From: Ignavibacteriota bacterium
GTDB taxonomy: Bacteria; Bacteroidota; Ignavibacteria; Palsa-1295
Assembly (NCBI GenBank): GCA_963787835.1
Contig: CAWBEI010000002.1
Coordinates: forward strand, 1,440,001-1,504,000
Direction of reading: 5' to 3'
DNA: 64,000 bases
The translations under genes were made by a program, and so were the position numbers. Position 1 is the first letter of the stretch. Each line of letters opens with the position of its first letter. Under the pieces are notes generated by a model. It saw only the letters and a program-made list of their open reading frames with translations. It was not told where the DNA came from and ran no database searches. Shown here piece after piece: positions 9,217-62,347 of the stretch.

Positions 9217-9268
9217 CTGAGAATCCATCCGCGTAATCCGCTCAGATCCGCGTCATCCAGGTTCAGAT
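9217..9268. repeat. ATCCGCGTAATCC-type dispersed repeat (copy 1)
   Basis: CTGAGAATCCATCCGCGTAATCCG is identical to 49032-49055; ATCCAGGTTCAGAT is identical to 49086-49099. Confidence 0.85.
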
Positions 9269-10794
9269 TAATCCATTATCCGCTTCAAGAACGCGGGCCT
9301 GTCATCGCGGTCTTTTGGTGGTGTAACACTCCGATCTGACGCAACTCCGGCGCCGACGAACTGAGGCTCTCCCTCCCCTTCGTCAATGGGGGGAAGGGTG
9401 ATGCCGCGGCGGAGATAGGCGGGCTGGTCGTAGTCCTTGAGGTCGCGCGGGCCGCTGGGAACGTGCCGCGAATCGGTGCGTGGTGTGAGGCGCGAGATCT
9501 GTCCGGCATGTTCCCTCACGCCATCCCGTTCGGCGGGAGAAATAGGGCTGTCAGTGCTGGCGCTTCGCATGGAAGCGCGTTCGAAGGTTTCGCGTCCATC
9601 TTTTTCTGTGAGGGTTCCACGCGGGACGTACATGCGCTCGATCTTCGGAAGCGGCATCGCTTCTTCTCCAATTTCCATCGTGCCGGTTTCGCGGAGCGGG
9701 TTGATGCCAATCGCTTCCGGCGTGTCTTCAACCGGCTGTAAAATGCGTTCGACACGCGGTTTGGGTTTCCCATTCTCAGCGGAGTCGCGAGAGGGAAGCA
9801 TGGTGCTGCGCGGAGATATTCCGCCGTTGTATTTCGGCTTGGAATTAAATCCCGTGGCGATCACGGTAACCATAATTTCCTCATCCATCGAGTCGTCAAG
9901 CACGGCACCGAAGATAATATTGGCGTCGTCACCGGCCGCATCGTGAACGATCTGTGTTGCCTCGCTGACTTCAAGCAGCGACATCGAGCGCCCGCCCGTG
10001 ATATTAACCAGCACGCCTTGCGCGCCCTGTATCTTCACGCCTTCGAGCAGCGGGGAAGATATTGCTTGCTCGGCAGCAATAGCAGCGCGGTGTTCGCCGC
10101 GTCCCAAGCCGGAACCCATGATGGCGTCACCCATTTCACGCATGACGGTTCGCACGTCCGCAAAATCAACGTTGATGTAGCCGTGCCGCGTGATGAGTTC
10201 GGAAATTCCACGCGTCGCATTGTACAGCACTTGATTGGCAAGTGAGAATCCATCGAGGAACGAAGTTCCATTCTCGACAAGTGCGAGTAATTTCTGGTTC
10301 GGTATAACGATCAGCGTATCGACGTTCTGGCGTAGTTCCTCGATACCCTCTTCGGCTTGCTTCGCACGGCGTTTGCCTTCGAATTGGAATGGCTTTGTGA
10401 CAATGCCAACAACGAGCGCGCCGGCATCTTTCGCAATACCGGCGACCGTTGCCGCGCCGCCGGTTCCCGTTCCGCCGCCCATGCCGGCGGTGACGAACAC
10501 CATATCGCACGAGGCGATCATGCGCGAGATCTCCTCGCGGTCTTCTTCGACGGCTTTGCGCCCAACTTCGGGATCGGCGCCCGCGCCTAATCCGCGCGTA
10601 AGGTTCTTGCCGATCTGTAATTTTATCGGTGCAGAACTTTTTTCCAGCGCCTGCACATCGGTGTTGAGGACGCAGAATTCCACGCCTTCCAGACCCTTGT
10701 TTATCATCGAGTTCACTGCGTTCGATCCGCCGCCGCCGATGCCGACGATCCTAATCTTTGCGCCATATTCCTGCTTGGTGTCGAGTTCTATCAT
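9268..10794 (-). CDS. ftsZ: Cell division protein FtsZ
   Basis: GGGGSNAVN, GMGGGTGTG tubulin signature, INVDFADV, C-terminal PAFLKRIMD. Confidence 0.99.
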   Translation of the reverse strand: MIELDTKQEYGAKIRIVGIGGGGSNAVNSMINKGLEGVEFCVLNTDVQALEKSSAPIKLQIGKNLTRGLGAGADPEVGRKAVEEDREEISRMIASCDMVFVTAGMGGGTGTGGAATVAGIAKDAGALVVGIVTKPFQFEGKRRAKQAEEGIEELRQNVDTLIVIPNQKLLALVENGTSFLDGFSLANQVLYNATRGISELITRHGYINVDFADVRTVMREMGDAIMGSGLGRGEHRAAIAAEQAISSPLLEGVKIQGAQGVLVNITGGRSMSLLEVSEATQIVHDAAGDDANIIFGAVLDDSMDEEIMVTVIATGFNSKPKYNGGISPRSTMLPSRDSAENGKPKPRVERILQPVEDTPEAIGINPLRETGTMEIGEEAMPLPKIERMYVPRGTLTEKDGRETFERASMRSASTDSPISPAERDGVREHAGQISRLTPRTDSRHVPSGPRDLKDYDQPAYLRRGITLPPIDEGEGEPQFVGAGVASDRSVTPPKDRDDRPAFLKRIMD

Positions 10795-10841
10795 GGTTGT
10801 ATAGGGGTTAAAAATTTATTGTTTCCGATCACAAAATTGGT

Positions 10842-12224
10842 TTAGAGTTGTTCGAACCATTCCTTCATTCTGGAGAAAATATTTCCAGCCTGTCCGTTCA
10901 TGGTTTGATCGTCCTGGATTTCCGCTGCCGGTTCTGCCGGAATTTCTTCTTGCACATACGATGCCGGTGCGTGATGTTTGAACGCATAGAGTACAAGCCC
11001 CACGGCCGTCGAAAAGACCGGCGATTCCACTTCCTTGACGAGCCCTGCCCCAAATCCCATCGGCATTCCGATCTTGACGGGCATTTGGAATATCTCTTCA
11101 GCGAGTTCCCGCGTGCCATTTGTCATCGAGCCGCCGCCCGTGAGCACTACGCCAGCGGAAAGATGGCGCGCATAGCCCGATCGCTTGATCTCCGCGAGCG
11201 CGAATTCTAATATTTCTTCCATGCGTGGCTGAATCACTCTTGCCAGCACCGACTTCGCGATCTCGCGCGGCTTGCGCCCTGCAAGTCCTGGAAGCTGAAT
11301 TACTTCATCGCGCAAAATGTGGGATACGACCGCGCAGCCATACTCGCGCTTCAGACGTTCAGCTTGATCGCCCAAAATACCAAGACCTTTACGAACGTCG
11401 TCGGTAACCTTTTGTCCTGCAATACCGATGACAGCGGTATGACGAATCGTTCTCTCTTCGAAAACGGCAATGTCCGTCGTGCCGCCGCCAATATCGACGA
11501 GCGCAACGCCCACTTCTTTCTCTTCATCATCCAACACGGCATAGCTCGATGCAAGCGGCTCGAGCACAATGTCGCGGACGCGAATTCCTGCACGCTCCAC
11601 GCAATTATGAATATTTTGCACCGCTGTCACAAGCCCATTGATGATATGAACGCTGGCTTCCAGACGCACGCCGGACATACCGATCGGCTCGTAAATACCA
11701 TCCTGACCATCAACGATGTACTCCTGCGGAATAACATGGAGGATCTTGCGATCCTGTGGCAAGTGAACTTTTTTAGTATCCTCGATGAGGCGCTGAACGT
11801 CGTCTTCGGTGATCGTTCGCTCGGCATTCGAGATCGTCACAACGCCGCGCGATTGAAACGACTGAATGTGATCGCCCGCAATGCCAACGACGACCTCGCG
11901 TATCTTCACGCCGCTCTGTGCTTCTGCCTCAGCAATTGCGCGTTCAATGGAGCGAACCGTCTTTTCGATATTGGTCACTACGCCGCGTGACAGGCCATCC
12001 GCAGGCGCATGACCGACTCCGAGGATCGTCATCGTGCGCGGTTCCCGCAGCGAAAGCGCCGCGACGATCGCGCAGACTTTCGTGGTGCCGACATCCAGGC
12101 CGACAATAATTCGGCCCGGATCGAGCGAACTCGGTACGCCGATCATCGGCGCGGAGTTCATGGGTGTTGAATAGGAAGAATCAGTTGGATGATCGCTTAT
12201 TCGCGTTCGTTGCATAGTGGGCAT
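10842..12224 (-). CDS. ftsA: Cell division protein FtsA (start uncertain)
   Basis: VGLDVGTTKV, DIGGGTTD, VVLTGGG, STAVGL, amphipathic tail. Confidence 0.98.
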   Translation of the reverse strand: MPTMQRTRISDHPTDSSYSTPMNSAPMIGVPSSLDPGRIIVGLDVGTTKVCAIVAALSLREPRTMTILGVGHAPADGLSRGVVTNIEKTVRSIERAIAEAEAQSGVKIREVVVGIAGDHIQSFQSRGVVTISNAERTITEDDVQRLIEDTKKVHLPQDRKILHVIPQEYIVDGQDGIYEPIGMSGVRLEASVHIINGLVTAVQNIHNCVERAGIRVRDIVLEPLASSYAVLDDEEKEVGVALVDIGGGTTDIAVFEERTIRHTAVIGIAGQKVTDDVRKGLGILGDQAERLKREYGCAVVSHILRDEVIQLPGLAGRKPREIAKSVLARVIQPRMEEILEFALAEIKRSGYARHLSAGVVLTGGGSMTNGTRELAEEIFQMPVKIGMPMGFGAGLVKEVESPVFSTAVGLVLYAFKHHAPASYVQEEIPAEPAAEIQDDQTMNGQAGNIFSRMKEWFEQL

Positions 12225-13386: not shown

Positions 13387-13538
13387 AATTCGTTCTTATG
13401 TTGCTCTTATAAGAAGCATGCTCCGCCTCCTGCGGTTACAGGCGCATTCGCTGAAAAATGAAATAGAGTGAGATGGTTACCCTTTGGATAAAGGGTACCT
13501 GCGTCCGGGATGCGGACTGCTAAAATGAGGAGAAGTTA

Positions 13539-21452: not shown

Positions 21453-21453
21453 A

Positions 21454-21528
21454 ATAGTGGATGGTTGATAGTGGAAAGTGAATAGTGATAATTATCAGTC
21501 ATACACTATCGACTTTCCACTATCCACT
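21454..21528. repeat. Inverted tandem heptamer array (ATAGTGG)n/(CCACTAT)n
   Basis: atagtgg atggttg atagtgg aaagtga atagtga ... acactat cgacttt ccactat ccact; same family as 49181-49248. Confidence 0.8.
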
Positions 21529-21534
21529 CATGTG

Positions 21535-22662
21535 TTACCGTACCTTAAACGTAGTCAGCGCCAGAATTGCAAGAATGATCGCCGTGATATACGCACGGGT
21601 AACGATCTTGGTCTCCGTCCAGCCGCAAAGTTGAAAATGGTGATGAATGGGGGCCATCCGAAATATTCTCCGGCCCTGCCCATATTTCTTGCGCGTGTAT
21701 TTGAAATATCCGGTCTGCACAATGACGGAGATGGATTCTAAAAAGAATATTCCTCCTACGATCGGCAGGACAAACTCCTTTTTGCAAAGCACCATCAGCG
21801 TTCCCATGGCACTGCCCAGAGCCAGCGATCCCGTATCGCCCATGATGACTTCCGCAGGATATGCATTATACCACAAAAAGCCAAGCACGGCTCCGACAAG
21901 CGCAGAACAAAAGACGGTCAGTTCACCCGCGCCGCGCAGGTAGGGAATGTTCAGGTAATCGCTCAGTTGAAGATTACCAGAAAAATAGGCAATGGCTCCG
22001 ATCGGAATGAATGCGATCGCAACCGTACCGGCACTCAGGCCATCGAGACCATCCGTCAAATTTACGGCGTTCGATGTGGCCGTAATAATGAAAATAACGA
22101 ACAGCACATACAAGTATGGCCCGAACTCGAACACAAGGTTCTTGAAGAATGGAACCGTCGTCGCCGTTCGAATATCGACACCCGCATATTTAAAAAGGCT
22201 TGGCTCGAAAATGATCGTGAGTGCGATAAGTAACCCGACAGCCGTTTGTCCGGCGATTTTATAAATTCCTATCAGTCCTTTCTTTTTCTTCTTAACGACC
22301 TTTAAGTAATCATCCAGGAACCCGACACCGCCTAAGAGCACCGTCGCAAGCACAACGAGGATGATGAACAGATTTCCCAGGTCTCCCCATAACAACGTGG
22401 GTACGACGATGGAGATCAGAATAATGATCCCACCCATCGTCGGCGTGCCGGCTTTTTTCAGATGTTCTTTCGGTGCTTCCTCTTTGCCGGTATCGCCGAT
22501 CTGGAGCTGCCTTAACCGAGCGATGATCTTCGGCCCGCTCCAGAGGCTAAGGGCCAGTGCGCTCATGGCAGCCAGCGCGCTGCGAAACGTCAGGTAGCGG
22601 AATAGATCCCCACCCGGCGGGTTGAATGCTTTGTTGATCCAGTTAAATAAATAGTAAAACAA
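21535..22662 (-). CDS. mraY: Phospho-MurNAc-pentapeptide transferase
   Basis: KAGTPTMGG, DDYLK, NAVNLTDGLDG, MGDTGSLALG, MAPIHHHF. Confidence 0.98.
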   Translation of the reverse strand: MFYYLFNWINKAFNPPGGDLFRYLTFRSALAAMSALALSLWSGPKIIARLRQLQIGDTGKEEAPKEHLKKAGTPTMGGIIILISIVVPTLLWGDLGNLFIILVVLATVLLGGVGFLDDYLKVVKKKKKGLIGIYKIAGQTAVGLLIALTIIFEPSLFKYAGVDIRTATTVPFFKNLVFEFGPYLYVLFVIFIITATSNAVNLTDGLDGLSAGTVAIAFIPIGAIAYFSGNLQLSDYLNIPYLRGAGELTVFCSALVGAVLGFLWYNAYPAEVIMGDTGSLALGSAMGTLMVLCKKEFVLPIVGGIFFLESISVIVQTGYFKYTRKKYGQGRRIFRMAPIHHHFQLCGWTETKIVTRAYITAIILAILALTTFKVR

Positions 22663-22692
22663 GTAAAAATTAAAAATTAAGAATTAAGAAGT
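22661..22692. repeat. Heptamer tandem array (AATTAAG/A)n on the left flank of the four-helix-bundle gene
   Basis: aagtaaa aattaaa aattaag aattaag; inverted relative to 23056-23091. Confidence 0.75.
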
Positions 22693-23046
22693 GGGGTCAT
22701 CGTTTTTCCGAGTTGATTTGATGATCGAACTGAGGATTTTGCAAAGTTCTTCGCAATCTTTAATAAACGAATCAGCGAGCTTTCGGTCGATCTTATTCGA
22801 TTCACGTAAAAGCCTAAGCCAATAACGAGTTTCACGAGCCTCTTTGTATGTAATTGCATTTTTCGAGATAAACTCTTTTCGCGATACGGCTGCTGTTGCT
22901 TCTTCAGCATTGGCACCGATCCCAGCACCGGATCGTAATACCTGATCCGCAAGAACAAATGCTCGATGCTCAATAAGCAGATCGCTTAATTTTATTATTC
23001 TCAACCCGAAATCAAAGCTCTTGGTCAGAATGGCACTTTCTTTCAT
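22684..23046 (-). CDS. Four-helix-bundle protein (23S rRNA IVP / bAvd-like family)
   Basis: KSFDF...LADQVLRSGAGIGANAEEA...SRKEFISK...KEARETRYWLRLL. Confidence 0.92.
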   Translation of the reverse strand: MKESAILTKSFDFGLRIIKLSDLLIEHRAFVLADQVLRSGAGIGANAEEATAAVSRKEFISKNAITYKEARETRYWLRLLRESNKIDRKLADSFIKDCEELCKILSSIIKSTRKNDDPTS

Positions 23047-23055
23047 CCGATCCCC

Positions 23056-23091
23056 AATTCTTAATTTTTAATTCTTACTTATTACTTAATT
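23056..23091. repeat. Heptamer tandem array (AATTCTT)n on the right flank of the four-helix-bundle gene
   Basis: aattctt aattttt aattctt acttatt acttaat. Confidence 0.75.
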
Positions 23092-24498
23092 TCATCCTTT
23101 TTGTAAAAGATCGATCAACTCCTCCATTTTCATTCCACGCGAGCCTTTGATGAGGAGTGCATCGCCGGGGCGCAATGCGTCCCGCAATGCCGAAGCCAGT
23201 TCTTCCTTTTGTGCAAAATAAGAATTCTTTGCAGCGCCATTCGTCGATTCCGCAGCCGTATAGGAACGCTTGGCCTCTGTGCCAGTGAAATAGGTGTGGT
23301 GAAATCGGAACTCAGCCACCTTGTGCCCTAAGGCCCGATGTTCCCGGGCAGCGGCACTCCCTAATTCGAGCATATCGCCAAGCGCCGCGAAGCGTCTGCC
23401 TTTAACAGGAAATTCTTTCAGGGTACGAAACGCAGATTCCATCGAATCAGGATTTGCATTATAGGCATCGTTGAGTATGGTGATGCCATCGACGCGCATA
23501 ACCTCAAGCCGGTTAGCATGAGGGTGGAAGGATTCGATCTGCGGTTTGATCTCCACGCGGCGCATGTGAAAATGCAGACCGACCGCGACTGCGGCAGCGA
23601 TGACGTTCGGAGCATAATCGGCGAATAGATGTGTGCGGATCACGAACGACTTACCATCGCATGTTAACCTGATCTCCACGCGGCCATCCTTCGCAAAACC
23701 CATTCGTTCGGCTTGAACGGATAATCCGTTGATGGTTGGGCCCGATCCGTAGGTCATTGCATGGGTTCCAAATTTTTTTGCTGCTGTCTTGAGGTAAGGA
23801 TCGTCCATATTGATGAACGCAAATCCTTCATGATTCAAGACATAATCGAATGCTGCTTTCTCTTCGCGGGCAACGCCTTTCAGATCCTTGAAAAATTCAA
23901 GATGTTCCTTGCCGATATTCGTAATCAGAGCGTGCGTCGGTTGTGCGACATCGCAGAGCCACGCAATTTCGCCGGGATGATTGGTGCCGATCTCAAGTAC
24001 GGCTGCCTCATGCCCACCGCGAAGCTGGAATATTGTATGTGGTACGCCGATCTGGTTGTTGTAATTCGCTTCCGTTTTCAGTACATCCAGCGAACCGGAT
24101 AAAACCTGCGCAACCAGTTCTTTCGTTGTTGTTTTTCCATTCGAGCCAGCGATGACCAGAACGGGAATATTGAATTTCTGCCGATAAAGTTTTGCTAATG
24201 CGCCGTACGCATCGAGCGAGCTGTTAACGACGAGCAACGGCAGTGGATGATTTCGTCCCTTCCGGCTTTCATACCACTCGTTGCTTACGACCGCTGCAAG
24301 CGCACCTTCTTTTGCGACCTGGCTCAGATATTGGTGCCCATCGAATCGCTCGCCGGTGAGCGATATAAAGAGATCATCCCGCCTAAGCGTGCGTGAATCC
24401 GTAGAAACATCTCGAATGGTGCGCGAAAGCCCCAATGCACGCACTCCTATTTCGCGCACGAACTCAATGCTGAGAAGATCTTGAATAGTTAGATTCAA
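23092..24498 (-). CDS. murF: MurF ligase
   Basis: DSR, GERFDGH, GSNGKTTTKE, NNQIGVP, NDAYNANPDSM, LGDMLELG, KGSRGM. Confidence 0.98.
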   Translation of the reverse strand: MNLTIQDLLSIEFVREIGVRALGLSRTIRDVSTDSRTLRRDDLFISLTGERFDGHQYLSQVAKEGALAAVVSNEWYESRKGRNHPLPLLVVNSSLDAYGALAKLYRQKFNIPVLVIAGSNGKTTTKELVAQVLSGSLDVLKTEANYNNQIGVPHTIFQLRGGHEAAVLEIGTNHPGEIAWLCDVAQPTHALITNIGKEHLEFFKDLKGVAREEKAAFDYVLNHEGFAFINMDDPYLKTAAKKFGTHAMTYGSGPTINGLSVQAERMGFAKDGRVEIRLTCDGKSFVIRTHLFADYAPNVIAAAVAVGLHFHMRRVEIKPQIESFHPHANRLEVMRVDGITILNDAYNANPDSMESAFRTLKEFPVKGRRFAALGDMLELGSAAAREHRALGHKVAEFRFHHTYFTGTEAKRSYTAAESTNGAAKNSYFAQKEELASALRDALRPGDALLIKGSRGMKMEELIDLLQKG

Positions 24499-26221: not shown

Positions 26222-26261
26222 TTTTCAACGAACGCCGCCTGACTTAGGAGCGATCACGGTC

Positions 26262-26337
26262 AATAATCAATGATAAATGGTGGATAATGAGATCAGGAAA
26301 CACATCCTGTTCATCATTCATCATTCAAAATTCATCT
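26262..26337. repeat. Inverted tandem heptamer array (AATGATG-like / TTCATCA)
   Basis: aataatc aatgata aatggtg gataatg ... ttcatca ttcatca ttcaaaa ttcatct, between ftsI and murE. Confidence 0.65.
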
Positions 26338-26342
26338 TTGTC

Positions 26343-33026: not shown

Positions 33027-33033
33027 TTTAATT

Positions 33034-43737: not shown

Positions 43738-43751
43738 CTGTTCGCTGCGAG

Positions 43752-43848: not shown

Positions 43849-43960
43849 TCCCCCGATGCGCGGGGCTCGGTTCATACCCGGAACGAACACCCCTGCTTCG
43901 GCGTATTCGGAAATGAATCAATTTGATATTCGTTCAACATCTAACACTACTTAAGGAACT

Positions 43961-44620: not shown

Positions 44621-44766
44621 CTCCCTCTCCTATGGAGAATAGTATTTTTTTCCGTGCTCCCCCTCCTATGAGCTTGCGAATAGGAGGGGGCAAGCATCGC
44701 CCACGATGCGTGGGGGTGGTTGGCGGGATTGCCACGCACTTAAAACCTAAAACTCCCCACTCACTC
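44621..44766. repeat. CCCCTCC/DUF559-type palindromic repeat
   Basis: CTCCCCCTCCTATGAGCTTGCGAATAGGAGGGGG...GGGGGTGGTTGGCGGGATTGC. Confidence 0.8.
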
Positions 44767-44886: not shown

Positions 44887-45912
44887 ATGAATGTAGCGCA
44901 AAAAATTAAACTTGACTTAACGGCAGAGATGCAAGCAAAGCCAGAACTGCGCGCGAAGCTCGAAGAGATTCGTAATAAGCAGAAGGTAAAAAGGCCACAC
45001 ACCGTTGCTCAAGTTCACCTTAGACGCTTTACTGGTAGTGATGGAAGACTTTGGGTTCTTGATAAACCCAAGCTTAAAATATTTCCTGCTGGACCGGAGG
45101 CTGTTACAGTTGTAAAAGGTTTTTTTGACACTGAATTTGAAGATCAATTTGAAGATTCCGAACTACCAGCGACCGGCCAATTAATAGAAGAGCTTTTCTG
45201 TGAAATTGAAGCAGAGTATGCGCCAATTTGCGAATCGATTATTCAGCGGGTGCAGAATGGCAACACTGCAGCGTTTAAGAAAGATGAACTATGGAGTCTG
45301 GCCGGATATATTGCAACACAATACATAAGAACGAAAGAGTTCCGAGATTACATGCTTGAGACACATACAACCATGGAGCTCAAAAAAATCCAACTACTAC
45401 ACCCCGAAATAGATGTGACGGATGTAAAATTGGAAATTTCAGATCCAGCAGCTTATCACGTCAAATTAATTGGTGAGTATGGCGTAATTCAAATGCTTCA
45501 TAAAGTGCTAATCGAAAAACATTCTTTGTGTTTGCATCGAACAACGGAACGACACCCATTTTGGACTTCTGACCAAGCAGCAGTAGCAAGTAAAGGCGGG
45601 TTTCTTCGGCGTGGTAATTTTTTCGCTTTTCCGTTGTCCCCTGAACTACTGGTTGCCTTCTATCAATATGGAAGTCACCCGCCAGCTGGTCTTAAAAATG
45701 GTATTTCAACATGGTGCAAACCCGCAAGCGTAAAATTCTTAAATGATCTTCAAGTAAAACGGAGCCACAGACAAGTATATTCAAATCAGAATCGATTCGA
45801 ATCTGCGATTGATCTTTGCGAAAAGATACCTGAACTTCGAAATCCAGACAGACCGCGTGTCAAAGTATCCGAGACTTACGACCGGGTTGGATTTCATTCG
45901 ATTGATTATTAA
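44887..45912 (+). CDS. DUF4238 family protein
   Basis: HTVAQVHLRRF, QYIRTKEFR, FWTSDQ, FPLSPE, N..Q...SHRQVYS; AT-rich. Confidence 0.75.
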   Translation: MNVAQKIKLDLTAEMQAKPELRAKLEEIRNKQKVKRPHTVAQVHLRRFTGSDGRLWVLDKPKLKIFPAGPEAVTVVKGFFDTEFEDQFEDSELPATGQLIEELFCEIEAEYAPICESIIQRVQNGNTAAFKKDELWSLAGYIATQYIRTKEFRDYMLETHTTMELKKIQLLHPEIDVTDVKLEISDPAAYHVKLIGEYGVIQMLHKVLIEKHSLCLHRTTERHPFWTSDQAAVASKGGFLRRGNFFAFPLSPELLVAFYQYGSHPPAGLKNGISTWCKPASVKFLNDLQVKRSHRQVYSNQNRFESAIDLCEKIPELRNPDRPRVKVSETYDRVGFHSIDY

Positions 45913-47811: not shown

Positions 47812-47827
47812 TATTTCTTTTATCCAT

Positions 47828-47886
47828 GTCATCCTTCGACTTCGCAAGACTCCGCTATCGCTACGTCTTGCTCCGCTCAGGATGAC
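47828..47886. repeat. Half copy of the GTCATCCTGAGCG-type palindromic element
   Basis: ATCCTTCGACT...CTCCGCTCAGGATGAC matches 61041-61095. Confidence 0.8.
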
Positions 47887-48990: not shown

Positions 48991-49099
48991 TAGAACCTGA
49001 GATACGCAAATTCTTGAGATTTACAAATATCCTGAGAATCCATCCGCGTAATCCGGATGATCGATCATCCGCTTTAATCCGCGTAATCCAGGTTCAGAT
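48991..49099. repeat. ATCCGCGTAATCC-type dispersed repeat (copy 2)
   Basis: AGAACCTG...ATCCGCGTAATCCAGGTTCAGAT, ending 3 nt before the tRNA. Confidence 0.8.
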
Positions 49100-49102
49100 A
49101 AA

Positions 49103-49179
49103 CGGCGTGTAGCGCAGCCTGGTAGCGCACTACTTTGGGGTAGTAGGGGTCGTGGGTTCAAATCCCGCCACGCCGACCA
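49103..49179 (+). tRNA. tRNA-Pro(GGG)
   Basis: CGGCGTG/CACGCCG acceptor stem, anticodon arm CTACT-TTGGGGT-AGTAG, GTTCAAATC T-loop, encoded CCA. Confidence 0.96.
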
Positions 49180-49180: not shown

Positions 49181-49248
49181 TGAGTTGATAACGGATAGTG
49201 GAAAGTGGATAGTTTTTTTAATCCACTATCCGTTATACACTATCCACT
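49181..49248. repeat. Inverted tandem heptamer array (ATAGTGG)n/(CCACTAT)n between the tRNA and rodA
   Basis: ataacgg atagtgg aaagtgg atagt ... ccactat ccgttat acactat ccact; could act as a bidirectional terminator. Confidence 0.8.
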
Positions 49249-50515
49249 AAAAAAGCACCTTCCGGTTCCGGTACAAGTTCATCAGAATTCCCGCCATCAG
49301 CAGATTAGTGAGCAGCGCCGAGCCGCCGTAGCTCATGAAGGGAAGCGGAATGCCAATAACGGGCATCAGCCCAAGTGCCATGCCGATATTCACCGTCACA
49401 TGCAGGAACCATATTCCGGCAATGCCTATCGCGACGACGCTCGAAAAGATACTCCGTACGCTCGATGCAATGGCCACTCCTCGGAAGATCACAAACAGAT
49501 AGAGCAGGAGAATTACAACGGCGCCGACAAATCCGAATTCTTCCGAGGGCACACTGATGATAAAATCCGTCCATTGTTTTGGCACATATCGTAGCTGTGT
49601 TTGTGTGCCTTTCAAATAGCCTTTGCCTAAGATGCCTCCGGAACCGATCGCCATGCGCGTTTGGATCACATTATATCCCGCGCCAAGCGGATCGAGCTCC
49701 GGATTGAGCAGCACCTGCACGCGGTTCCGCTGATACTGATGCAAATGCTCGTAAATAAAATTCGTCGAGAAGGCAATAGCGATCACTACTCCGAATGTAA
49801 ATACCGTGAGTACAAGATTTCTTCGGAAGATAAAAAAGAGGATCGCGCCTCCGGCAAGCACGGCAATGACCGTTGGCGTTTGACCGAACAGCGATAGCAC
49901 GGCAACCAGCGCGGGGATCACAACCGCCGCAAGCAGGAACAGATCAACCCCCGACCATAACAACGTAATGACGAGCAATCCCACGAAAATAACGGCGGTT
50001 CCAGGATCGGGTTCCTTCAAAATGAGCGCCGTGGGGATAAAAACGATCGCGCACACAATGAGCACGTTGGAGATCTTTTCCAGATCGCGGCCTTTATTTA
50101 AATAGGCTCCAACGGTGAAGATCGTTGCGAGCTTTGCGATTTCCGATGGCTGGAACTGAAAACTCCCGATCGCGATCCAACTGCGGTGTCCATAAACAAG
50201 TTTTCCTTTAAACGCGACGAATACCAGCAACGCAAGGCTGATGCCATACAATGGGTATGCGATTGCTTGAAACCAACGAACAGGCAGCATTGCCATGACG
50301 ATCATGCCAGCAATGCCTCCGGCGGCAAACAACAATTGCGAGCCAAAGCGGTTGTTCATGTTCGCCGCGTAGGTTGCGCTATAGATCGCAAAAAATCCCG
50401 CCGTGACCAGCAAGAGCACGGAGAGAAATGTCGTAATGTCGAAATTCTTGATCTCCAGTACATCGCGTACTGCGGATGGACTGGAAAAATCGATCTGATT
50501 GCTTTCGATCGGCAT
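49247..50515 (-). CDS. rodA: SEDS protein RodA
   Basis: FQPSEIAK, EPDPGT, DPLGAGYN..Q...AIGSGG..GKG...GTQ, GIPLPFMSYGG. Confidence 0.96.
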   Translation of the reverse strand: MPIESNQIDFSSPSAVRDVLEIKNFDITTFLSVLLLVTAGFFAIYSATYAANMNNRFGSQLLFAAGGIAGMIVMAMLPVRWFQAIAYPLYGISLALLVFVAFKGKLVYGHRSWIAIGSFQFQPSEIAKLATIFTVGAYLNKGRDLEKISNVLIVCAIVFIPTALILKEPDPGTAVIFVGLLVITLLWSGVDLFLLAAVVIPALVAVLSLFGQTPTVIAVLAGGAILFFIFRRNLVLTVFTFGVVIAIAFSTNFIYEHLHQYQRNRVQVLLNPELDPLGAGYNVIQTRMAIGSGGILGKGYLKGTQTQLRYVPKQWTDFIISVPSEEFGFVGAVVILLLYLFVIFRGVAIASSVRSIFSSVVAIGIAGIWFLHVTVNIGMALGLMPVIGIPLPFMSYGGSALLTNLLMAGILMNLYRNRKVLF

Positions 50516-51082: not shown

Positions 51083-51202
51083 GTAGCCGTGACCTTTAGG
51101 TCACGGTGTGTAGATGTGCGTTCCCGTAGCCGTGACCTTCAGGTCACGGTGTGTAATAGCCATGATATTGTCGTTACACCGCGAGCTAAAGCTCACGGCT
51201 AC
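51083..51202. repeat. REP family 1 cluster (3 copies)
   Basis: GTAGCCGTGACCTT(T/C)AGGTCACGGTG at 51083 and 51126; inverse copy at 51177-51202. Confidence 0.95.
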
Positions 51203-52457: not shown

Positions 52458-52620
52458 GTAGCCGTAACCTTCAGGTTACGGTGTGAATGAGCAAAGCAGT
52501 TGCAGTCACACCGTGAGCTAAAGCTCACGGCTACGAAATTCCGCGTAGCCGTAACCTTCAGGTTACGGTATGAATGTGCAAAGCTGTTGCATTACACCGT
52601 GAGCTGAAGCTCACGGCTAT
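52458..52620. repeat. REP family 1 array (4 copies, two doublets) 3' of the RAYT gene
   Basis: 52458-52483, 52509-52534, 52545-52570, 52595-52620. Confidence 0.95.
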
Positions 52621-52629: not shown

Positions 52630-53112
52630 TCACAATATTCCACCGGTCCATTTTGATAGATCGAACACGGTCGAGCCTTTGAATGGATAATCCTGCCACG
52701 TATCGCAGATCCCCGCACGAACCGGATTATTTAAAATATAGGTGATGAGTTTGGCGAGATCTTCTTGCTCTCGAAGAATATGGTCATAAAAATCTTCTTG
52801 CCATCGAACATCGCTCTGATTTCTTGCAAGCCAGAATCCAGAGTATTGCTTGAACACTCGCATCGCCCCATAAATATCCGATGTGGACTCAAGTCCCGTA
52901 ATAACAACATGCAGATGGTCGGGCATGAAGAGATATACCTCCGATGCACAGTGATACTGTGATAATGCTCGTAATAAATGTTTTTCGTGAATCTCGAACG
53001 TTTCTCTCGTAAGAAAATAATTATGCCGTTGATCAATACACGCTGTAAAGGATGCTCGAACAAATCCTCGATACGTTTCGCGAGGAAGGCGGTGTTTCTT
53101 TTCCTGGATCAT
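52630..53112 (-). mobile_element. REP-associated tyrosine transposase (RAYT, Y1 HUH) no. 1
   Basis: MPDHLH (HUH), WQEDFYDHILR, YILNNPVRAG; flanked by GTAG REPs. Confidence 0.95.
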
Positions 53113-53128
53113 GTAAGTTTGAACAATA

Positions 53129-53323
53129 CACCGTAGCCTAAAGGTTACGGCTACGAATCCCCGTAGCCGTGACCTTCAGGTCACGGTGAATTTTGCGATG
53201 CCGTTGCAGTTACACCGTGAGCTAAAGCTCACGGCTACGAATCCCCGTAGCCGTAACCTTTAGGTTACGGTGTGAATTAATGATGGTGTTGCCGTTACAC
53301 CGTGAGCTAAAGCTCACGGCTAC
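53129..53323. repeat. REP family 1 array (5 copies) 5' of the RAYT gene
   Basis: 53129-53154, 53163-53188, 53213-53238, 53247-53272, 53298-53323. Confidence 0.95.
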
Positions 53324-53358
53324 GTTCGGATGGCGGATAATCGTCGTATTTTTGCACT

Positions 53359-54966
53359 GTGATTACATTAGACGGCAATTCTCTTACTATTGAAGACGTC
53401 GCCCGCGTTGCGCGGGGCGAGGAGCGGGATATAAAAATTTCGGAAGAAGCGAAAGTAAACATCGCTCGCTCACGAGCGCTGGTGGACGAATGGGTCGAGC
53501 GCGGCGAGATCATTTACGGCGTGACGACCGGCTTCGGCGAATTCGCAAATGTCAACATTCCTCATGAGGAGCTTCGTCAGCTTCAGCAGAATTTATTACG
53601 TTCCCACAGCGCAGGAGTTGGTGAACCGCTTGCACCGGAAGTAGTTCGGGCGATGCTGTTGCTTCGCGCGAATGCGCTCGCGAAAGGCTGCTCAGGAATT
53701 CGCCTTGTTGCCATTGAGCAATTATTGAAATTCCTGGCAGCGGATATACTTCCCGTGATCCCATCGCGCGGAAGCGTTGGTTCTTCCGGCGACCTTGCAC
53801 CATTGGCGCATCTGGCGCTTGCGCTAACCGGGGAAGGATATGTTGCGCAAACTTCAGTTTGCGATTCGGTCGAGGGGTCGCAAACTAAAGTTTGCGCTAC
53901 ACGGGAAGCCTTGCAACAGGCTGGTATCGCACCTCTCATTTTAGAAGCCAAAGAAGGGCTTGCGCTCATCAATGGAACTCAAATGATGTCGGCTATCGGT
54001 TGCCTTGCGCTCACCAGAGCGAAACAGCTTGCCGATCTGGCCGATATTGCCGGTGCGATGTCCTTCGAGGCTCTGCGTGCAACGGATACTGCATTCGATC
54101 CGCGCATTCATGCCGCACGCCCGCATAAGGGGCAGCAATTCGTCGCGGAGCGAATGCTTGGCCTCATTGCCGGCAGCGAAATTCGCCAATCGCATCGCGC
54201 GAATGACCCGCGTGTGCAGGATGCCTATTCCGTTCGCTGCATCCCGCAGGTTCACGGCGCTGTGCGGGATACCATAGAGTTCGTTGAGCGGACGTTGACG
54301 ATAGAAATAAACTCAGCGACAGATAATCCGCTTATATTTCCAGATGTAACACAAAATGTAGCGCAAACTTCAGTTTGCGACCCCGCGAATGGGTCGCAAA
54401 CTAAAGTTTGCGCTACAAGTGCACATCTCGAAGGCGGCAACTTCCACGGCGAACCGCTCGCTCTCGCCCTCGATTATCTCGCTATCGCGCTCTCGGAACT
54501 TGCCAGCATTTCCGAACGCCGCACGGAACGGCTAATCAATGGTGCACTTTCGAATGGGTTGCCTCGGTTCCTCACCGACCATGGCGGACTGAATTCCGGC
54601 TACATGATCGCGCAATACACCGCCGCTGCTCTCGTAAGCGAAAATAAAGTTCTCGCGCATCCCGCGAGCGTCGATTCCATCCCCACGAGCGCCAATATGG
54701 AAGATCACAATTCCATGGGATCTATTGCGGCGCTGAAATTGCGAAGTGTTGTGAAGAATGTCGAGACCGTCCTCGCCATCGAGCTGCTTTGCGCCGCGCA
54801 GGGGATCGATTTCCTCGCGCCGCTCAAGCCCGGCAAAGGCACCGGCAGCGCACACGAACGTATCCGCCAGCGCGTCCCGCATTTGGATAAGGATAGGAAT
54901 GTATCCCAGGATATTGCAAAAGTCCTCGAATTAACGCAAGGAAGAGAGTTTTTGAAAAACATCTGA
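53359..54966 (+). CDS. hutH: Histidine ammonia-lyase with two in-frame 20-aa REP-derived segments
   Basis: YGVTTGFG, GSVGSSGDLAPLAH, KEGLALINGTQ, QDAYSVRC.PQVHG, GGNFHGEP, EDHNSMG; next to hutI. Confidence 0.97.
   Translation: MITLDGNSLTIEDVARVARGEERDIKISEEAKVNIARSRALVDEWVERGEIIYGVTTGFGEFANVNIPHEELRQLQQNLLRSHSAGVGEPLAPEVVRAMLLLRANALAKGCSGIRLVAIEQLLKFLAADILPVIPSRGSVGSSGDLAPLAHLALALTGEGYVAQTSVCDSVEGSQTKVCATREALQQAGIAPLILEAKEGLALINGTQMMSAIGCLALTRAKQLADLADIAGAMSFEALRATDTAFDPRIHAARPHKGQQFVAERMLGLIAGSEIRQSHRANDPRVQDAYSVRCIPQVHGAVRDTIEFVERTLTIEINSATDNPLIFPDVTQNVAQTSVCDPANGSQTKVCATSAHLEGGNFHGEPLALALDYLAIALSELASISERRTERLINGALSNGLPRFLTDHGGLNSGYMIAQYTAAALVSENKVLAHPASVDSIPTSANMEDHNSMGSIAALKLRSVVKNVETVLAIELLCAAQGIDFLAPLKPGKGTGSAHERIRQRVPHLDKDRNVSQDIAKVLELTQGREFLKNI
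53842..53901. repeat. REP family 2 doublet in frame within hutH (aa 162-181)
   Basis: GTTGCGCAAACTTCAGTTTGCGA...TCGCAAACTAAAGTTTGCGCTACA. Confidence 0.95.
54358..54417. repeat. REP family 2 doublet in frame within hutH (aa 334-353)
   Basis: GTAGCGCAAACTTCAGTTTGCGACCC...GGGTCGCAAACTAAAGTTTGCGCTACA. Confidence 0.95.
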
Positions 54967-54978
54967 TTTGCCCATCAT

Positions 54979-55058
54979 GTCATCCCCGCGAAAGCGGGGA
55001 TCCAGACCCAAACTTCACTGAAACGTGAGGCCTGGATTCCCGCTTTCGCGGGAATGAC
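54979..55058. repeat. dRS3-like hairpin doublet without a nuclease gene
   Basis: GTCATCCCCGCGAAAGCGGGGATCCA...TGGATTCCCGCTTTCGCGGGAATGAC; the second unit is identical to 33100-33125. Confidence 0.92.
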
Positions 55059-55133
55059 AATCACCAGATTTATTAAATAGGTCAAAAATAAGTCCCTCCT
55101 GCATTATTCCACGAGATTCTTGTTGTCCTCTTC

Positions 55134-57234: not shown

Positions 57235-57311
57235 GTAGCCGTGACCTTCAGGTCACGGTGTGAATCAGCAACGGTATTTCATTTACACCGTGAGCTAAAG
57301 CTCACGGCTAC
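57235..57311. repeat. Isolated REP family 1 doublet (REPIN-like)
   Basis: 57235-57260 and inverse 57286-57311. Confidence 0.95.
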
Positions 57312-57361: not shown

Positions 57362-58759
57362 ATGATTCGCAGACTTTACAAGGAATACCGTTTCCAGATC
57401 ATTCTGGCGTTTTCGCTGGTCGTTCTGGAGAATTTCGCCTACGTGGCGGAGCCGTATGTCTTTGGGAAAGCGATAGATGGACTCCGCGAAGCCAACCGTG
57501 TGGAAGAAGAAGTTGATACCACGTTATCGTCGTTTCAGCGCAGGGAATTAGCGGATTCGATACGCGCGCGCGTTGTCGATTCGATGAAGATGGTCGATTC
57601 CCTTCAGCGGCTGGATTCACTTTCCTCCAGCCTATATCCCAGCGAACCCGCGATAAACGATGCTTCGATGGAAGCCGATCACGCCGAAGCGGATGCCCGG
57701 GCTTCGTATGTGCATCTCGCGTTGTATGTTGTTGGCCATCGGAATAGATCGGCTGCATTCGATACTGGAACTGTTTCATTGCCGCAGGAGGGAACTCCCG
57801 AGCGCGCACGGATCGATAGCATTCGCCATGCGCTCCGGCTATTCGACTCCATTCGGAGCCGGCAGCGTCACAAGAAGCATCCTCAGATGACGCGTCAGGC
57901 CGCTCGCGATTCCATTCTGAAGGCACACGCAGCCGGAAAGCCGTCTCCCGGTCCCGGAAAACCTGCCGGCACATCGAATCAACCTCCGAAACAGCCGCTC
58001 GTTTTTTACATGACGCGTGAGATCGGGCCGTTCCTTCCGCCGCTTATTCCGTGGGTGCTGCTGTTCCTCATCAACTCTGCTGTCGGCGCGATACGGCGTG
58101 TGTATGATACCCGCATCTATACCAAGATGTTCTCGAATCTTTCCAGCGATGTGGTTGCGCGGCAACTCGCGCAAGGGGAGGATCTCTCCAAAGTTGCGGC
58201 GCGAAGCGCTATGGCGTGGCATAATATCGAGTTCTTTCAGTATAATGTACCGGAGTTCCTCGAACAGCTTATTGCCGTCGGTGGAGCGGTCATTGCATTG
58301 GGGCTTTTTGACTGGCGGCTGACCGTCGTGGGATCGATATTGATCGTGCTTGTGGTGATCGGGAGCAGATATTACATGAACTTGTTGACGAATATTCAAT
58401 CGACGCTGCACGATCAGTATGAAGATGAATTCAACGTTTTCTCAACTCGCGAACCGGCCAAGATTCGCTCATACTATTCGAACATTGCGGATCTGGAGAT
58501 AAAGTATTCTGTCCGATCAACGTTCAGTTACGGTGTCGTCCGATTCTTTCTTCTTATCATGTTCCTCTCGACGCTCTATATCTCGATCGATCTGGATAAA
58601 TTCACCATCGGTGCGCTCTATTCCATCGTGGCATACGTATGGAGCTTCGTCACCGCTACGGAATACATCCCATATCTCTCCGAGAAATGGGTGGAGCTGA
58701 AAGATGCTTCGCGGAGGATCACAGAACCGCTGGAATCAGAACCTGGATTACGCGGATAA
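57362..58759 (+). CDS. ABC transporter six-TM-like protein with a large insertion and no ATPase domain
   Basis: PYVFGKAIDGL, GAIRRVYDTRIYTK, IEFFQ..VP. Confidence 0.65.
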   Translation: MIRRLYKEYRFQIILAFSLVVLENFAYVAEPYVFGKAIDGLREANRVEEEVDTTLSSFQRRELADSIRARVVDSMKMVDSLQRLDSLSSSLYPSEPAINDASMEADHAEADARASYVHLALYVVGHRNRSAAFDTGTVSLPQEGTPERARIDSIRHALRLFDSIRSRQRHKKHPQMTRQAARDSILKAHAAGKPSPGPGKPAGTSNQPPKQPLVFYMTREIGPFLPPLIPWVLLFLINSAVGAIRRVYDTRIYTKMFSNLSSDVVARQLAQGEDLSKVAARSAMAWHNIEFFQYNVPEFLEQLIAVGGAVIALGLFDWRLTVVGSILIVLVVIGSRYYMNLLTNIQSTLHDQYEDEFNVFSTREPAKIRSYYSNIADLEIKYSVRSTFSYGVVRFFLLIMFLSTLYISIDLDKFTIGALYSIVAYVWSFVTATEYIPYLSEKWVELKDASRRITEPLESEPGLRG

Positions 58760-58924
58760 GGACAGAAGCGGGATTTCGCGGATTTGGATGGATTTCGCGG
58801 ACGATTGCAAGGATTTATTCTCTTACGTCCGTCGAGGTAATTATCATGAAATTTGAATTTTACCCGCACAATCCGAAAAATCGTCCGCGTAATCCATCCA
58901 AATCTGTGTAATCCCGGTTCAGAT
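58735..58924. repeat. ATCCGCGTAATCC-type repeat, two-armed inverted copy (copy 3)
   Basis: ATCAGAACCTGGATTACGCGGAT ... ATCTGTGTAATCCCGGTTCAGAT. Confidence 0.8.
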
Positions 58925-60775: not shown

Positions 60776-60973
60776 CTATTCCATTTTCACCATCTTAGGT
60801 GTGAGCGCATTTTTCGTGGTATCGCCGATAATATCGGCGGGACCACGGAACATGCGGGGATGCTTGCCTTCCATTTTGTGAAGCGAGTTCGCGGTAGCAG
60901 CTGAATCCGCTACGGGCGGGGGTGGTTGCTTCATGCAACTGACGATAAACAGAATTAAAAATGCAACTGTCAT
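60776..60973 (-). CDS. Small putative lipoprotein
   Basis: MTVAFLILFIVSC signal; its stop abuts the oppA stop; the ATG lies in the repeat end. Confidence 0.45.
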   Translation of the reverse strand: MTVAFLILFIVSCMKQPPPPVADSAATANSLHKMEGKHPRMFRGPADIIGDTTKNALTPKMVKME

Positions 60974-61095
60974 CCTGAGCGGAGCAAACCGCAGCGAAGC
61001 GGAGGTTTGCGGAGTCGAAGGATCTCTGGAACTTGCAGAGATCCTTCGACTCCGTTCTTCTCTCCTTCGTCGAGAAGAACTCCGCTCAGGATGAC
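60969..61095. repeat. GTCATCCTGAGCG...CGCTCAGGATGAC palindromic element
   Basis: Terminal IR GTCATCCTGAGCGGAG and inner IR CGGAGTCGAAGGATCTCTG/CAGAGATCCTTCGACTCCG. Confidence 0.9.
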
Positions 61096-61109
61096 ATAAT
61101 GGATAGATC

Positions 61110-61595
61110 ATGATTCTTTATCTTGTTCGTCATGGTGATGCCGATACGATCGCTCCGCGCGACGATGAACGCGTGCTTTCGAAAAAAGGGATTCGCGTTA
61201 CCACGGCAATGGCGCAATTACTGAAACACGCGGAGTTCGACCTGCCGGAGATCATTCTTACCAGCCCCTTGCCGCGCGCAGAACAAACAGCGCGTATCAT
61301 GCTCGAAGAGTTCGCGCCAAAAGCGAAATTCGAAATTATAGAAGGACTTCGTTCCGGCGGCAGCATAGAAGCGGTCATGTCCATTATTGCTGCAAACAAA
61401 GAAGAATGCGATGTACTGATGCTCGTTGGCCACGATCCGCTATTCTCCATGCTTGCCAGCATCCTTGTCAGCGGAACCGAATATGCGATCGAAATGAAAA
61501 AGAGCGCGGTTGCAGTTATTGAGATCACGCGATTTGAAGCCCCAAGGATGCGGGGAATATTACGGGCGTTTCTCCCACCTCGTATCGCAATGTAG
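61110..61595 (+). CDS. sixA: Phosphohistidine phosphatase SixA
   Basis: LYLVRHGDA, D.ER.L...G, SPLPRAEQTA, LVGHDP. Confidence 0.92.
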   Translation: MILYLVRHGDADTIAPRDDERVLSKKGIRVTTAMAQLLKHAEFDLPEIILTSPLPRAEQTARIMLEEFAPKAKFEIIEGLRSGGSIEAVMSIIAANKEECDVLMLVGHDPLFSMLASILVSGTEYAIEMKKSAVAVIEITRFEAPRMRGILRAFLPPRIAM

Positions 61596-61655
61596 CGCAA
61601 ACTTTAGTTTGCGACCCCCACCCCGCGCGAAGTCGCAAACTAAAGTTTACGCTAC
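61592..61655. repeat. REP family 2 doublet 3' of RAYT no. 2
   Basis: GTAGCGCAAACTTTAGTTTGCGACCC...GTCGCAAACTAAAGTTTACGCTAC. Confidence 0.95.
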
Positions 61656-61662
61656 AATCGTG

Positions 61663-62301
61663 TTACAATGCGACGCCGCCCAACTTGGGATGGAGATATG
61701 TCCATGGATAATCGTCCCAATTAGCAACGAGTCCAGCATGAACCGGATTCATCAAAATGTATTCAATGATTCTATCGAACTCACCATCTCGGACAACGTG
61801 ATCGTAGCTCTCGTGTTGCCAGAATGTTCCTGAACGGCCAAGTGCCTTATTGCATTCAAAAGCACTTCTGCCTTTAAGTAACTGCATGATATGCCTCAGA
61901 GATTTCTCCGGGTTGGAGAGCGAGAGTAATACATGAACATGATTTGACATGATAGTGAAACACCAGAGAGTGACATGTCCTTCTCGATCGAGTGAGTGCA
62001 AAGTATCTGCTACGATCCTGGCGGCAAGTGGGTTGCTGAGGACTTTAGATTCTTTTGAGGAATCCAGCATCGTGTCGAATTTCGCGAAATGTTTTTTTCG
62101 TAAGATTGCAATTTCTTCTGGGGTCGATGTTTTAGATTTTGCGGAACTTGTGATTTGTCGCTGTTCCGCTTGAAGACTGTCGAGCACGGATTTTGGTAAT
62201 GAGTTGTGTAAGCGAAAGGTTATGAAAAGGGCGGCATCGGGCGGTGTAAAATGTGGGAGATTCCGGCGATAGGTTGGAGGGTTTTCTTTCCAAATGCTCA
62301 T
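61663..62301 (-). mobile_element. REP-associated tyrosine transposase (RAYT, Y1 HUH) no. 2
   Basis: YRRNLPH, FITFRL, MSNHVH (HUH), FWQHESYDHVVR, YILMNPVHAGL. Confidence 0.95.
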
Positions 62302-62321
62302 AGGATTTCTGTTAAGCGTGG

Positions 62322-62347
62322 GGGTCGCAAACTAAAGTTTGCGCTAC
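62322..62347. repeat. REP family 2 single copy 5' of RAYT no. 2
   Basis: GGGTCGCAAACTAAAGTTTGCGCTAC. Confidence 0.95.

Follow-up and report, generated by a model that had tools for sequence, protein, structure and literature searches.

Results

Five small genes between copies of their own repeats

The window analysed here is the whole 64,000-nucleotide stretch G000:C2:1440001-1504000 from a genome (G000) of 3.57 Mb and 97.9% completeness, and it contains five small genes, each lying between copies of a repeat (Table 1). Two of them encode RAYT-family HUH-Y1 proteins (RAYT, REP-associated tyrosine transposase), each inside GTAG-tagged hairpins with dispersed copies (REP1 and REP2); the others encode a single-domain GIY-YIG protein between hairpins resembling the NTS repeat, a DUF559 protein between CCCCTCC arms, and a four-helix-bundle protein between arrays of heptamers. 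A first-pass annotation of the window had proposed these five pairs and their shared architecture, namely a small gene flanked by its own repeat with gene-less copies elsewhere, and all five units as well as the layout were confirmed. Two of its terms fit less well: "palindrome" does not describe the heptamer and nonamer families, which are tandem arrays placed as inverted arms, and "small enzyme" is a misnomer for the four-helix-bundle proteins, for which we know of no catalytic activity. In the GIY-YIG protein, the spacing of Y9, Y20 and E67 is equal to that of Y6, Y17 and E64 in SsnA (PMC11893778), and the five NTS-like copies in the window match 25-27 of the 28 positions of the NTS consensus.

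Class specificity of the flanking repeats

Tested genome-wide against the possibility that the repeats flank random genes equally often, the pairings survived and were strengthened, also across genomes. With class detectors written after inspection of the flanks, and with loci taken mostly from related genomes and in few cases from G000, the own-class repeat was found on both sides of 24/35 DUF559, 20/29 four-helix, 14/30 GxxExxY, 23/29 GIY-YIG and 13/28 RAYT genes, as compared with 2, 15, 9, 23 and 17, respectively, of 3099 other genes in a single background genome. Repeats of another class were on both sides of zero or one locus, save for three GTCAT matches at RAYT loci; the enrichment over background is 85- to 1000-fold, and the matrix is nearly diagonal. 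Fourteen of 165 loci (six fused long frames, seven at contig edges and one duplicate) plus a weak fragment (L016) were dropped from this matrix, and many of the DUF559 misses have looser variants of the CCCTC motif, as many of the RAYT misses have other hairpins.

A repeat-rich genome could bracket many genes by chance. Indeed, a given repeat class is present on one side of 3-14% of genes, and an annotation-blind inverted-repeat score of at least 14 across a gene was obtained for 44 of the 3132 genes called with a simple dicodon model, which shortened some starts and missed some genes. Of these 44, 17 belong to the 25 loci of the repeat-associated families, and the remaining 27 (of ~3107) are ordinary; therefore, a bracket at a single locus proves nothing alone. 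The annotation-blind test and the class-flank matrix nonetheless led us to reject chance bracketing, which the size of the enrichment, its near-diagonal pattern and its repetition in distant phyla render hardly credible.

In distant hosts (Proteobacteria, Patescibacteria, Nitrospirota, Bacteroidota and others), 11 of 14 DUF559 loci passed. Ten further four-helix loci were sampled with one protein query, since the four-helix alignment is too divergent for a scan of the collection, and all ten are flanked on either side by period-7 arrays (14-21 of 21) in a layout that is not always simply inverted; seven of them are on plasmids of Cyanobacteriota, Bacillota, Bacteroidota and Chloroflexota, these being seven of 28 records picked for taxon spread. 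Arms of 9-10 bases were seen by eye at six GxxExxY loci on viral contigs. The pairing is real, class-specific and general.

Two observations concern unusual settings of these genes. DUF559 is also present in frames of ~870-990 residues (L107, L129, L131, L135 and L007), with CCCTC hairpins still at L107 and L135, and three of the seven plasmid-borne four-helix cassettes, all cyanobacterial (L301, L305 and L306), adjoin cas1, two of them lying between cas1 and cas2 on the opposite strand.

Gene-less elements and their partner genes

Several families had been regarded as orphans, which is correct within the window but not genome-wide; 17 of the 19 gene-less window elements find their best match in the flank of a predicted partner gene, the GAATGAT heptamer doublet and the GGAC nonamer hairpin being those without such a match. 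Family searches in G000 gave five small GIY-YIG genes, two DUF559 genes, six TIGR02436 matches, nine Y1 loci and three GxxExxY genes. By eye, GTCAT hairpins of three subtypes, both "orphan" subtypes included, bracket four of the five small GIY-YIG genes, and two CCCTC subtypes bracket both DUF559 genes; inverted nonamer arms are around 3/3 GxxExxY genes, heptamer arms around 5/5 short four-helix genes and hairpin ends around 9/9 Y1 loci. The "IS200-end-like" composite of the window consists of both ends of the C4:47797 Y1 cassette minus the gene. The fifth small GIY-YIG gene (G000:C5:66900-67330) has, instead of GTCAT hairpins, a tRNA-like gene on one side and, on the other, an incomplete direct copy of the 3' part of that tRNA-like gene, which makes for another kind of gene-and-repeat arrangement.

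A variant of the four-helix gene is associated with period-9 arrays. Among 17 longer TIGR02436 matches from relatives, the TIGR04258 suffix was found in all nine that were scanned, and a period-9 score of 16/27 was reached upstream in 15/17 and of 17/27 downstream in 8/17 loci; the G000 copy of this four-helix-suffix gene has an early stop and an array of this kind inside its frame.

A 16-mer census detected 78 repeat clusters in G000. Counted against the reversed genome, which gave 0-1 matches, the motifs number 44 for REP1 (27 loci), 33 for REP2 (27 loci), 44 for ATTCCC, 125 for ATTGCGAG, 77 for ATCCTGAG, 30 for CCCTC, 100 for the nonamer and 58 for the IS200-like type. The GGAC-nonamer pattern is rarer (eight motifs at five loci, none in the control), and heptamer arrays amount to 263, whereas 1.5 Mb of shuffled DNA yielded a single qualifying window. 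At gathering scores, Rfam recognised one tRNA in the window and no RNA family for any repeat. For a third REP family (GGACGTG...GCACGTCC) with 21 loci, we found no matching partner among G000 genes; several heptamer unit types are likewise without a matching G000 partner gene, and for some of these, relatives carry four-helix genes.

Repeat subtypes and partner proteins

Repeat subtype tracks the protein tree for GIY-YIG and, in part, for the four-helix proteins. In the GIY-YIG tree (29 rows), the ATTGCGAG subtype forms one clade of ten rows from three host families (support 94/87), and the ATTCCC subtype is grouped on a weaker branch; in the four-helix tree, sister proteins have common units and the arms of a cassette are usually built from one unit, with many forks open. 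The heptamers have a feature in common: on one strand, three purines followed by T (RRRT) are present in 250/263 arrays, as compared with 41% of random 7-mers.

In DUF559, E24, D53, E64, D66, H70 and D79 are invariant in 39/39 rows. In 30 GxxExxY proteins, E31, D70 and K82 are invariant and E80, Q94 and Y98 are conserved at 90% or more, giving an E..D..ExK..QxxxY set, and the closest fold to the structural model (pLDDT 89.7) is Cas4 SSO0001 (4IC1; E 1.5e-4), with lambda exonuclease also near. The PD-(D/E)XK superfamily includes both the Vsr-like and the Cas4-like fold, and the GxxExxY partner, as predicted from its modelled fold and active site, fits a nuclease of this kind. The four-helix protein matches 2RLD, which has five chains, with Q35, S42, N46, E49 and E72 conserved; a fold search with the four-helix-suffix model returned nothing at E 0.001, the top ranks being the S23p structures 2GSC and 2RLD. 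A diversity-generating retroelement (Avd-type) as the origin of the four-helix cassettes was considered and rejected, as no PF00078 reverse transcriptase was found in the 97.9% complete G000.

Gene number, repeat number and E. coli ycjD

DUF559 matches, fused forms included, correlate with the CCCTC count (rho 0.55 across 41 genomes; 0.83 for the 16 that belong to other families), as do GxxExxY genes with nonamers (rho 0.65 in 15 congeners), although kin are not independent in these comparisons or in that of E. coli strains below. The E. coli K-12 gene ycjD is a DUF559 gene, and its product is 43% identical to the DUF559 protein of the window. The gene terminates in a degenerate TM hairpin; TM_ECO copy 9 lies ~170 bases further, and the hairpin on the upstream side is a different one. 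ycjD is present in 3378/5426 E. coli genomes. TM_ECO copies were compared in eight strains, UTI89 being left out; they number 23 (K-12), 29, 29 and 20 in the four strains with ycjD and 1, 0, 6 and 1 in the four without. The TM_ECO consensus, CCCTCNCCC-loop-GGGNGAGGG-N3-GGGNGAGGG, has one strict match in G000, and 30 motifs fit the hairpin half alone; these 30 are therefore taken as variants of BoxC/TM_ECO rather than strict members.

Different repeat classes at the same site

Comparison of congeners at one and the same site reveals full and collapsed cassettes, gene-less forms and empty sites, and one class nests in another. The mraY-murD junction has a hairpin in 15/15 congeners, which by eye is a GTAG-type REP in eight, a heptamer doublet in five, and a CCCTC and a GTCAT type in one each. 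G000, G006 and G014 have the murF-mraY four-helix cassette in common (94-96% identical), yet possess three different classes at mraY-murD. Across the congeners, murF-mraY has three cassettes, seven gene-less heptamer doublets, one REP2, one remnant and three empty sites, and three other junctions of the same cell-wall operon are without an insert in every one of the 13-14 genomes covered. At ftsI-murE of G006, a REP1 doublet is nested within the heptamer doublet. The paaB-paaC junction in 13 genomes has three full GIY-YIG cassettes, a collapsed remnant of 39 bases, two gene-less doublets of another subtype, one nonamer doublet, one unrelated insert and five empty sites. Peptides of one hutH loop, aligned for 13 genomes without G010 and G013, indicate in-frame REP2 (2), CCCTC-like (4) or heptamer-like (4) inserts or no insert (3). 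In G009:C33 (L167 and L180), furthermore, two NTS-type GIY-YIG cassettes are one kilobase apart, at paaA-paaB and paaB-paaC.

Such sites may also be viewed from the side of the host: hairpins at junctions would be kept for the processing or stability of mRNA, as stems for RNase III, with the proteins tuning expression or DNA uptake, and any class would then serve, so that the classes replace each other. The ever-present mraY-murD hairpin and the three ever-empty junctions of the operon fit this idea, as does the excess of junctions occupied in both genomes of a comparison: 13/128 for G002 (4.1 expected) and 9/105 for G006 (3.5 expected), each over 400 kb and with detectors that both miss and over-call (e.g., the REP at mraY-murD of G002 was missed). 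RNase III cuts the stems of intervening sequences (IVSs) in rRNA (PMC4990558), and SsnA lowers transformation of Neisseria (PMC11893778). The excess, however, is mostly of the same class and may be descent, the doubly occupied junctions of different class being four in G002 and two in G006; close relatives lack an element at other occupied junctions, 14/28 CCCTC loci of G000 are within coding frames, and PIT/TM motifs are reported to be without promoter or terminator activity (PMC4666352). We consider such a host function quite improbable as the source of the pairs, and it is compatible with recognition and spread of the repeats by their partners.

Other features of the window

A 16-base palindrome (GCATCGCCCACGATGC type; window 43292-43307 and 44694-44709) is found at 41 loci of G000 and occurs within the loops of several unrelated repeat classes, with 12/44 copies at most 120 bases from another repeat anchor, as compared with 6% of random positions. 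A motif ending in TTGAAAAATGAAATT precedes murE and, in the opposite orientation, ftsQ in almost every congener (window 26226-26262 and 13440-13480; L062-L075) and has the appearance of a regulator site for this operon of cell-wall genes. Four 21-base tandem units (28671-28759) occupy a variable 5' region of ftsI, where low-complexity sequence of an unrelated kind or a CCCTC element is found in congeners. A MntA/HepT-like toxin-antitoxin pair, under the NCBIfam cut-offs, lies between purD and ftsZ (8583-9216); a lone ORF6N-domain gene (36325-36885) and an AT-rich DUF4238 gene (44887-45912) are not bracketed by repeats.

Table 1. Partner genes, their flanking repeats and gene-less elements in the window
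Feature	Position	Strand	Basis and remarks
Gene-less nonamer arm (ATCCGCGTAATCC family), GxxExxY type	9217-9269		Best match: flank of GxxExxY gene G000:C2:1798430, 41 nt, 93%
Gene-less heptamer doublet (GTGGATA-type), mraY-murD	21453-21530		Weak best match: flanks of four-helix gene C2:1157251
Heptamer arm, 3' end of four-helix-bundle gene	22656-22696		Inspection of window repeats
Four-helix-bundle (S23p/IVS-type) gene, murF/mraY interval	22684-23046	-	TIGR02436 91.7 bits, PF05635 75.7 bits; PDB 2RLD E 2.5e-24
Heptamer arm, 5' end of four-helix-bundle gene	23052-23092		Inverted relative to 22656-22696
Gene-less heptamer doublet (GAATGAT-type), ftsI-murE	26290-26340		Retained in most congeners; no partner-flank match in G000
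GGAC/GTCC nonamer hairpin, paaA/paaB interval	32531-32596		No flank match in G000; like arrays flank TIGR04258 four-helix-suffix genes in relatives
dRS3/NTS-like (CGTC-type) hairpin doublet, TGTCATTCCCGC, upstream of GIY-YIG gene	33033-33126		25/28 and 26/28 versus published NTS consensus
Single-domain GIY-YIG gene (Ssn-like), 120 aa, paaB/paaC interval	33138-33500	+	PF01541 62.7 bits
NTS-like TGTCATTCCCGC hairpin within 3' end of GIY-YIG gene	33456-33483		NTS-consensus match
Gene-less GTCATTGCGAG doublet, paaC-paaD	34268-34390		Best match: flank of GIY-YIG gene C2:1244874; absent in G002, G014, G009, G013
Gene-less CCCTCTCC (BoxC/TM-like) element, second subtype	41885-41975		66 nt at 97% to flank of second DUF559 gene C5:324220
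CCCCTCC (BoxC/TM-like) arms upstream of DUF559	43140-43353		Window repeat inspection
DUF559 (Vsr-like) gene	43372-43737	+	PF04480 101 bits; PDB 3HRL E 1.4e-16; 43% identity to E. coli YcjD
CCCCTCC doublet downstream of DUF559	43751-43854		Window repeat inspection
Gene-less CCCCTCC element	44620-44743		Partner-flank match
Gene-less "IS200-end-like" composite	45935-46157		Matches both flanks of Y1 gene C4:47797 (43 nt, 100%; 45 nt, 93%)
Partial GTCATCCTGAGCG element	47825-47886		Best matches: flanks of GIY-YIG genes C2:1221612, C2:1256678
Nonamer arm upstream of tRNA gene (49103-49176)	49032-49100		Partner-flank match; tRNA by Rfam
Heptamer doublet downstream of tRNA gene (49103-49176)	49186-49249		Partner-flank match
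Gene-less REP1 cluster	51083-51202		Repeat pattern, partner-flank match
REP1 cluster downstream of RAYT1	52458-52620		Window repeat inspection
RAYT1	52630-53112	-	NF047646 87.2 bits, cut-off 80
REP1 cluster upstream of RAYT1	53128-53324		Window repeat inspection
REP2 doublet, in frame within hutH	53840-53901		Repeat pattern, partner-flank match
Second REP2 doublet, in frame within hutH	54356-54417		Repeat pattern; loop has other repeat types in congeners
Gene-less NTS-like doublet 3' of hutH	54978-55059		NTS-like match
Gene-less REP1 doublet	57235-57311		Repeat pattern, partner-flank match
Gene-less nonamer doublet, GxxExxY type	58735-58920		Best match: flanks of GxxExxY gene C2:953655
Gene-less GTCATCCTGAGCG doublet	60968-61096		Partner-flank match
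REP2 doublet downstream of RAYT2	61590-61656		Repeat pattern
RAYT2	61663-62301	-	NF047646 83.9 bits, cut-off 80
REP2 upstream of RAYT2	62324-62348		Repeat pattern

Discussion

The pairs described here are best viewed as unrelated minimal cassettes: in each, a small gene is enclosed by its private repeat in inverted orientation, and the repeat also exists in many copies without the gene. Each protein probably recognises the repeat of its own cassette in single-stranded nucleic acid, and such recognition would, therefore, likely make the protein the driver of the spread of that repeat. RAYT and SsnA are known to cleave single-stranded DNA adjacent to their own hairpins, and SsnA homologues cleave their own repeats with distinct specificity (PMC11893778). 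The Vsr-like DUF559 protein would nick beside BoxC-type repeats and GxxExxY, with its Cas4/RecB-like fold, beside nonamers; host repair would then copy the doublet into new sites, and internal deletion would yield the gene-less doublets. Survival would be confined to tolerant places, i.e., just after stop codons and in surface loops of proteins, where a newcomer repeat may nest in or displace an older one. The four-helix protein might bind the periodic RRRT heptamers as a pentamer and would require a host or partner enzyme, which is the weakest step of the scheme. As the GIY-YIG, DUF559, GxxExxY and four-helix partners are not HUH transposases, strand joining by the Y1 mechanism is impossible for them.

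Alternatively, the genes might be passengers and the repeats only the ends of the cassettes, comparable to IVS stems or to the ends of miniature inverted-repeat transposable elements, and might be copied by shared machinery such as a resident Y1 protein acting in trans, host recombination or slippage. G000 indeed has nine Y1 loci, the same sites are used by different classes, slippage can enlarge tandem arrays, and the four-helix proteins are without known activity. The S23p frame of Coxiella is described as decaying and probably unexpressed (PMC4990558). This explanation appears unlikely, however, given that no common end tag is shared across the classes, that the catalytic residues of DUF559 and GxxExxY are retained, that RRRT is kept in 250/263 heptamer arrays with the other positions variable, and that repeat numbers track the partner gene; the distinct specificities of the SsnA homologues on their own repeats also argue against it.

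Several points weigh against recognition and spread by the partner proteins. Co-inheritance of a gene and its ends yields an identical flank matrix without any recognition. For DUF559, GxxExxY and the four-helix proteins, we infer binding and cutting as well as spread, and the spread likewise for any non-RAYT pair. The split of E. coli strains by ycjD and TM_ECO number follows strain lineage, as judged by phylogroup. In G004, 32 CCCTC motifs were counted but no DUF559 gene was found, and for G017, G020, G029, G035 and G040 a DUF559 match contrasts with zero strict motifs; similarly, the strict nonamer pattern is on both sides at 14/30 relatives and 0/6 viral loci, at which arms are visible by eye. 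No reverse transcriptase was found in G000 at its 97.9% completeness. The gene-bearing form moves rarely, because the murF-mraY (94-96%) and paaB-paaC (66-76%) cassettes are shared by descent. No target-site duplication was readable in 41 pairs of filled and empty sites, several of which are detector errors, the relatives being too far apart (~82% protein identity), and the two cleanest short alleles retain the left-end tag and thus may be deletions rather than pre-insertion sites. Finally, the demonstrated role of SsnA is the restriction of transforming DNA, by which it lowers transformation in Neisseria, and not the spread of repeats (PMC11893778). Among sequencing runs, no RNA data set with these sequences was listed; four low-depth DNA contig sets of one study contained no joints and are evidence neither way.

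The RAYT/REP and GIY-YIG/dRS3 (Ssn/NTS) pairs have already been published, and DUF559/BoxC, GxxExxY/nonamer and four-helix/heptamer are the same design with other proteins, as is the suffix variant. The notion of a class broader than RAYT/REP, raised in the first-pass annotation, is thus borne out in that the design extends to other proteins; its extension to GIY-YIG had been reported with biochemistry and with the RAYT analogy (PMC11893778), where SsnA cuts single-stranded DNA beside NTS and 42% of homologues are flanked on both sides. What is added here is the same-site replacement of repeat classes and the tracking of BoxC numbers by ycjD in E. coli. We found no publication that connects dispersed repeats with DUF559, with GxxExxY or, outside rRNA, with four-helix genes, most subscription papers being outside the reach of the search, and the accessible part of PMC11893778 makes no mention of DUF559 or four-helix proteins.

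In comparison with known systems, RAYT1 and RAYT2 are similar to REPtrons (RAYT/TnpA-REP with GTAG REP/REPIN; PMC3733652 and PMC6006769), including gene-less doublets, some of them in frame in genes, but four other protein families share the REPtron layout here, which serves as the model for every other pair. The GIY-YIG pair has the small single-domain protein, the Y-Y-E spacing and the NTS-like flanks of the Ssn/NTS system (SsnA of Neisseria and SRM repeats; PMC11893778) and of CGTC REPs, which include dRS3 and are apparently without a dedicated transposase (PMC3733652), whereas G000 has four such genes and three repeat subtypes tracking the protein tree, including GTCATTGCGAG and GTCATCCTGAG. 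With the intrastrand-triplex repeats BoxC/PIT/TM_ECO (PMC4666352), the CCCTC elements share the C-rich stem, the loop, the G-rich stem, a second G-run and frequent inverted pairs, with a single strict TM_ECO match and 30 looser motifs in G000. No mobility gene is reported near TM_ECO motifs in that source, whereas the G000 copies bracket DUF559 genes, and half of the loci are in frame within genes. Like the four-helix cassettes, ORF-bearing 23S rRNA IVSs (S23p; PMC4990558) have a four-helix gene within heptamer-bearing terminal inverted repeats, but the window cassette is between murF and mraY, and cassettes are between protein or tRNA genes and not in rRNA; hundreds of gene-less arrays also exist here, in many unit types with the common RRRT. 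GGGAATC heptamer arrays of Xanthomonas and Nostoc (PMC4692102) likewise lie between genes of the same orientation and frequently form inverted pairs, and no adjacent mobile element is described. Six Y1 loci with Y---Q--HH, long inverted ends and gene-less copies resemble the TnpA-Y1 subclass 1.2/TIRtrons (PMC6006769 and PMC3733652); this subclass, assigned here from the motif alone, is generally without typical IS200 ends (PMC6006769), whereas composite hairpin ends are present in G000.

In a wider and more tentative reading, which we would put forward as possible rather than probable, these are general minimal selfish cassettes with at least five origins from unrelated folds, among them a non-catalytic four-helix pentamer reading periodic RRRT heptamers; each would copy a private repeat, and the classes would compete for a few tolerant junctions and overwrite one another there, which might explain the BoxC, CGTC and heptamer/nonamer families and offer new single-strand nucleases. 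Long-described repeat families of unknown source, namely BoxC/TM_ECO and the heptamer arrays of Xanthomonas and cyanobacteria, each gain a candidate protein, and YcjD becomes a testable candidate enzyme for BoxC of E. coli. DUF559 and GxxExxY are good candidates for sequence-specific single-strand cutters, because the same logic yielded the Ssn nucleases (2025). Same-site replacement, furthermore, means that the hairpin at an operon junction can switch among unrelated classes before the neighbouring proteins diverge by 10%.

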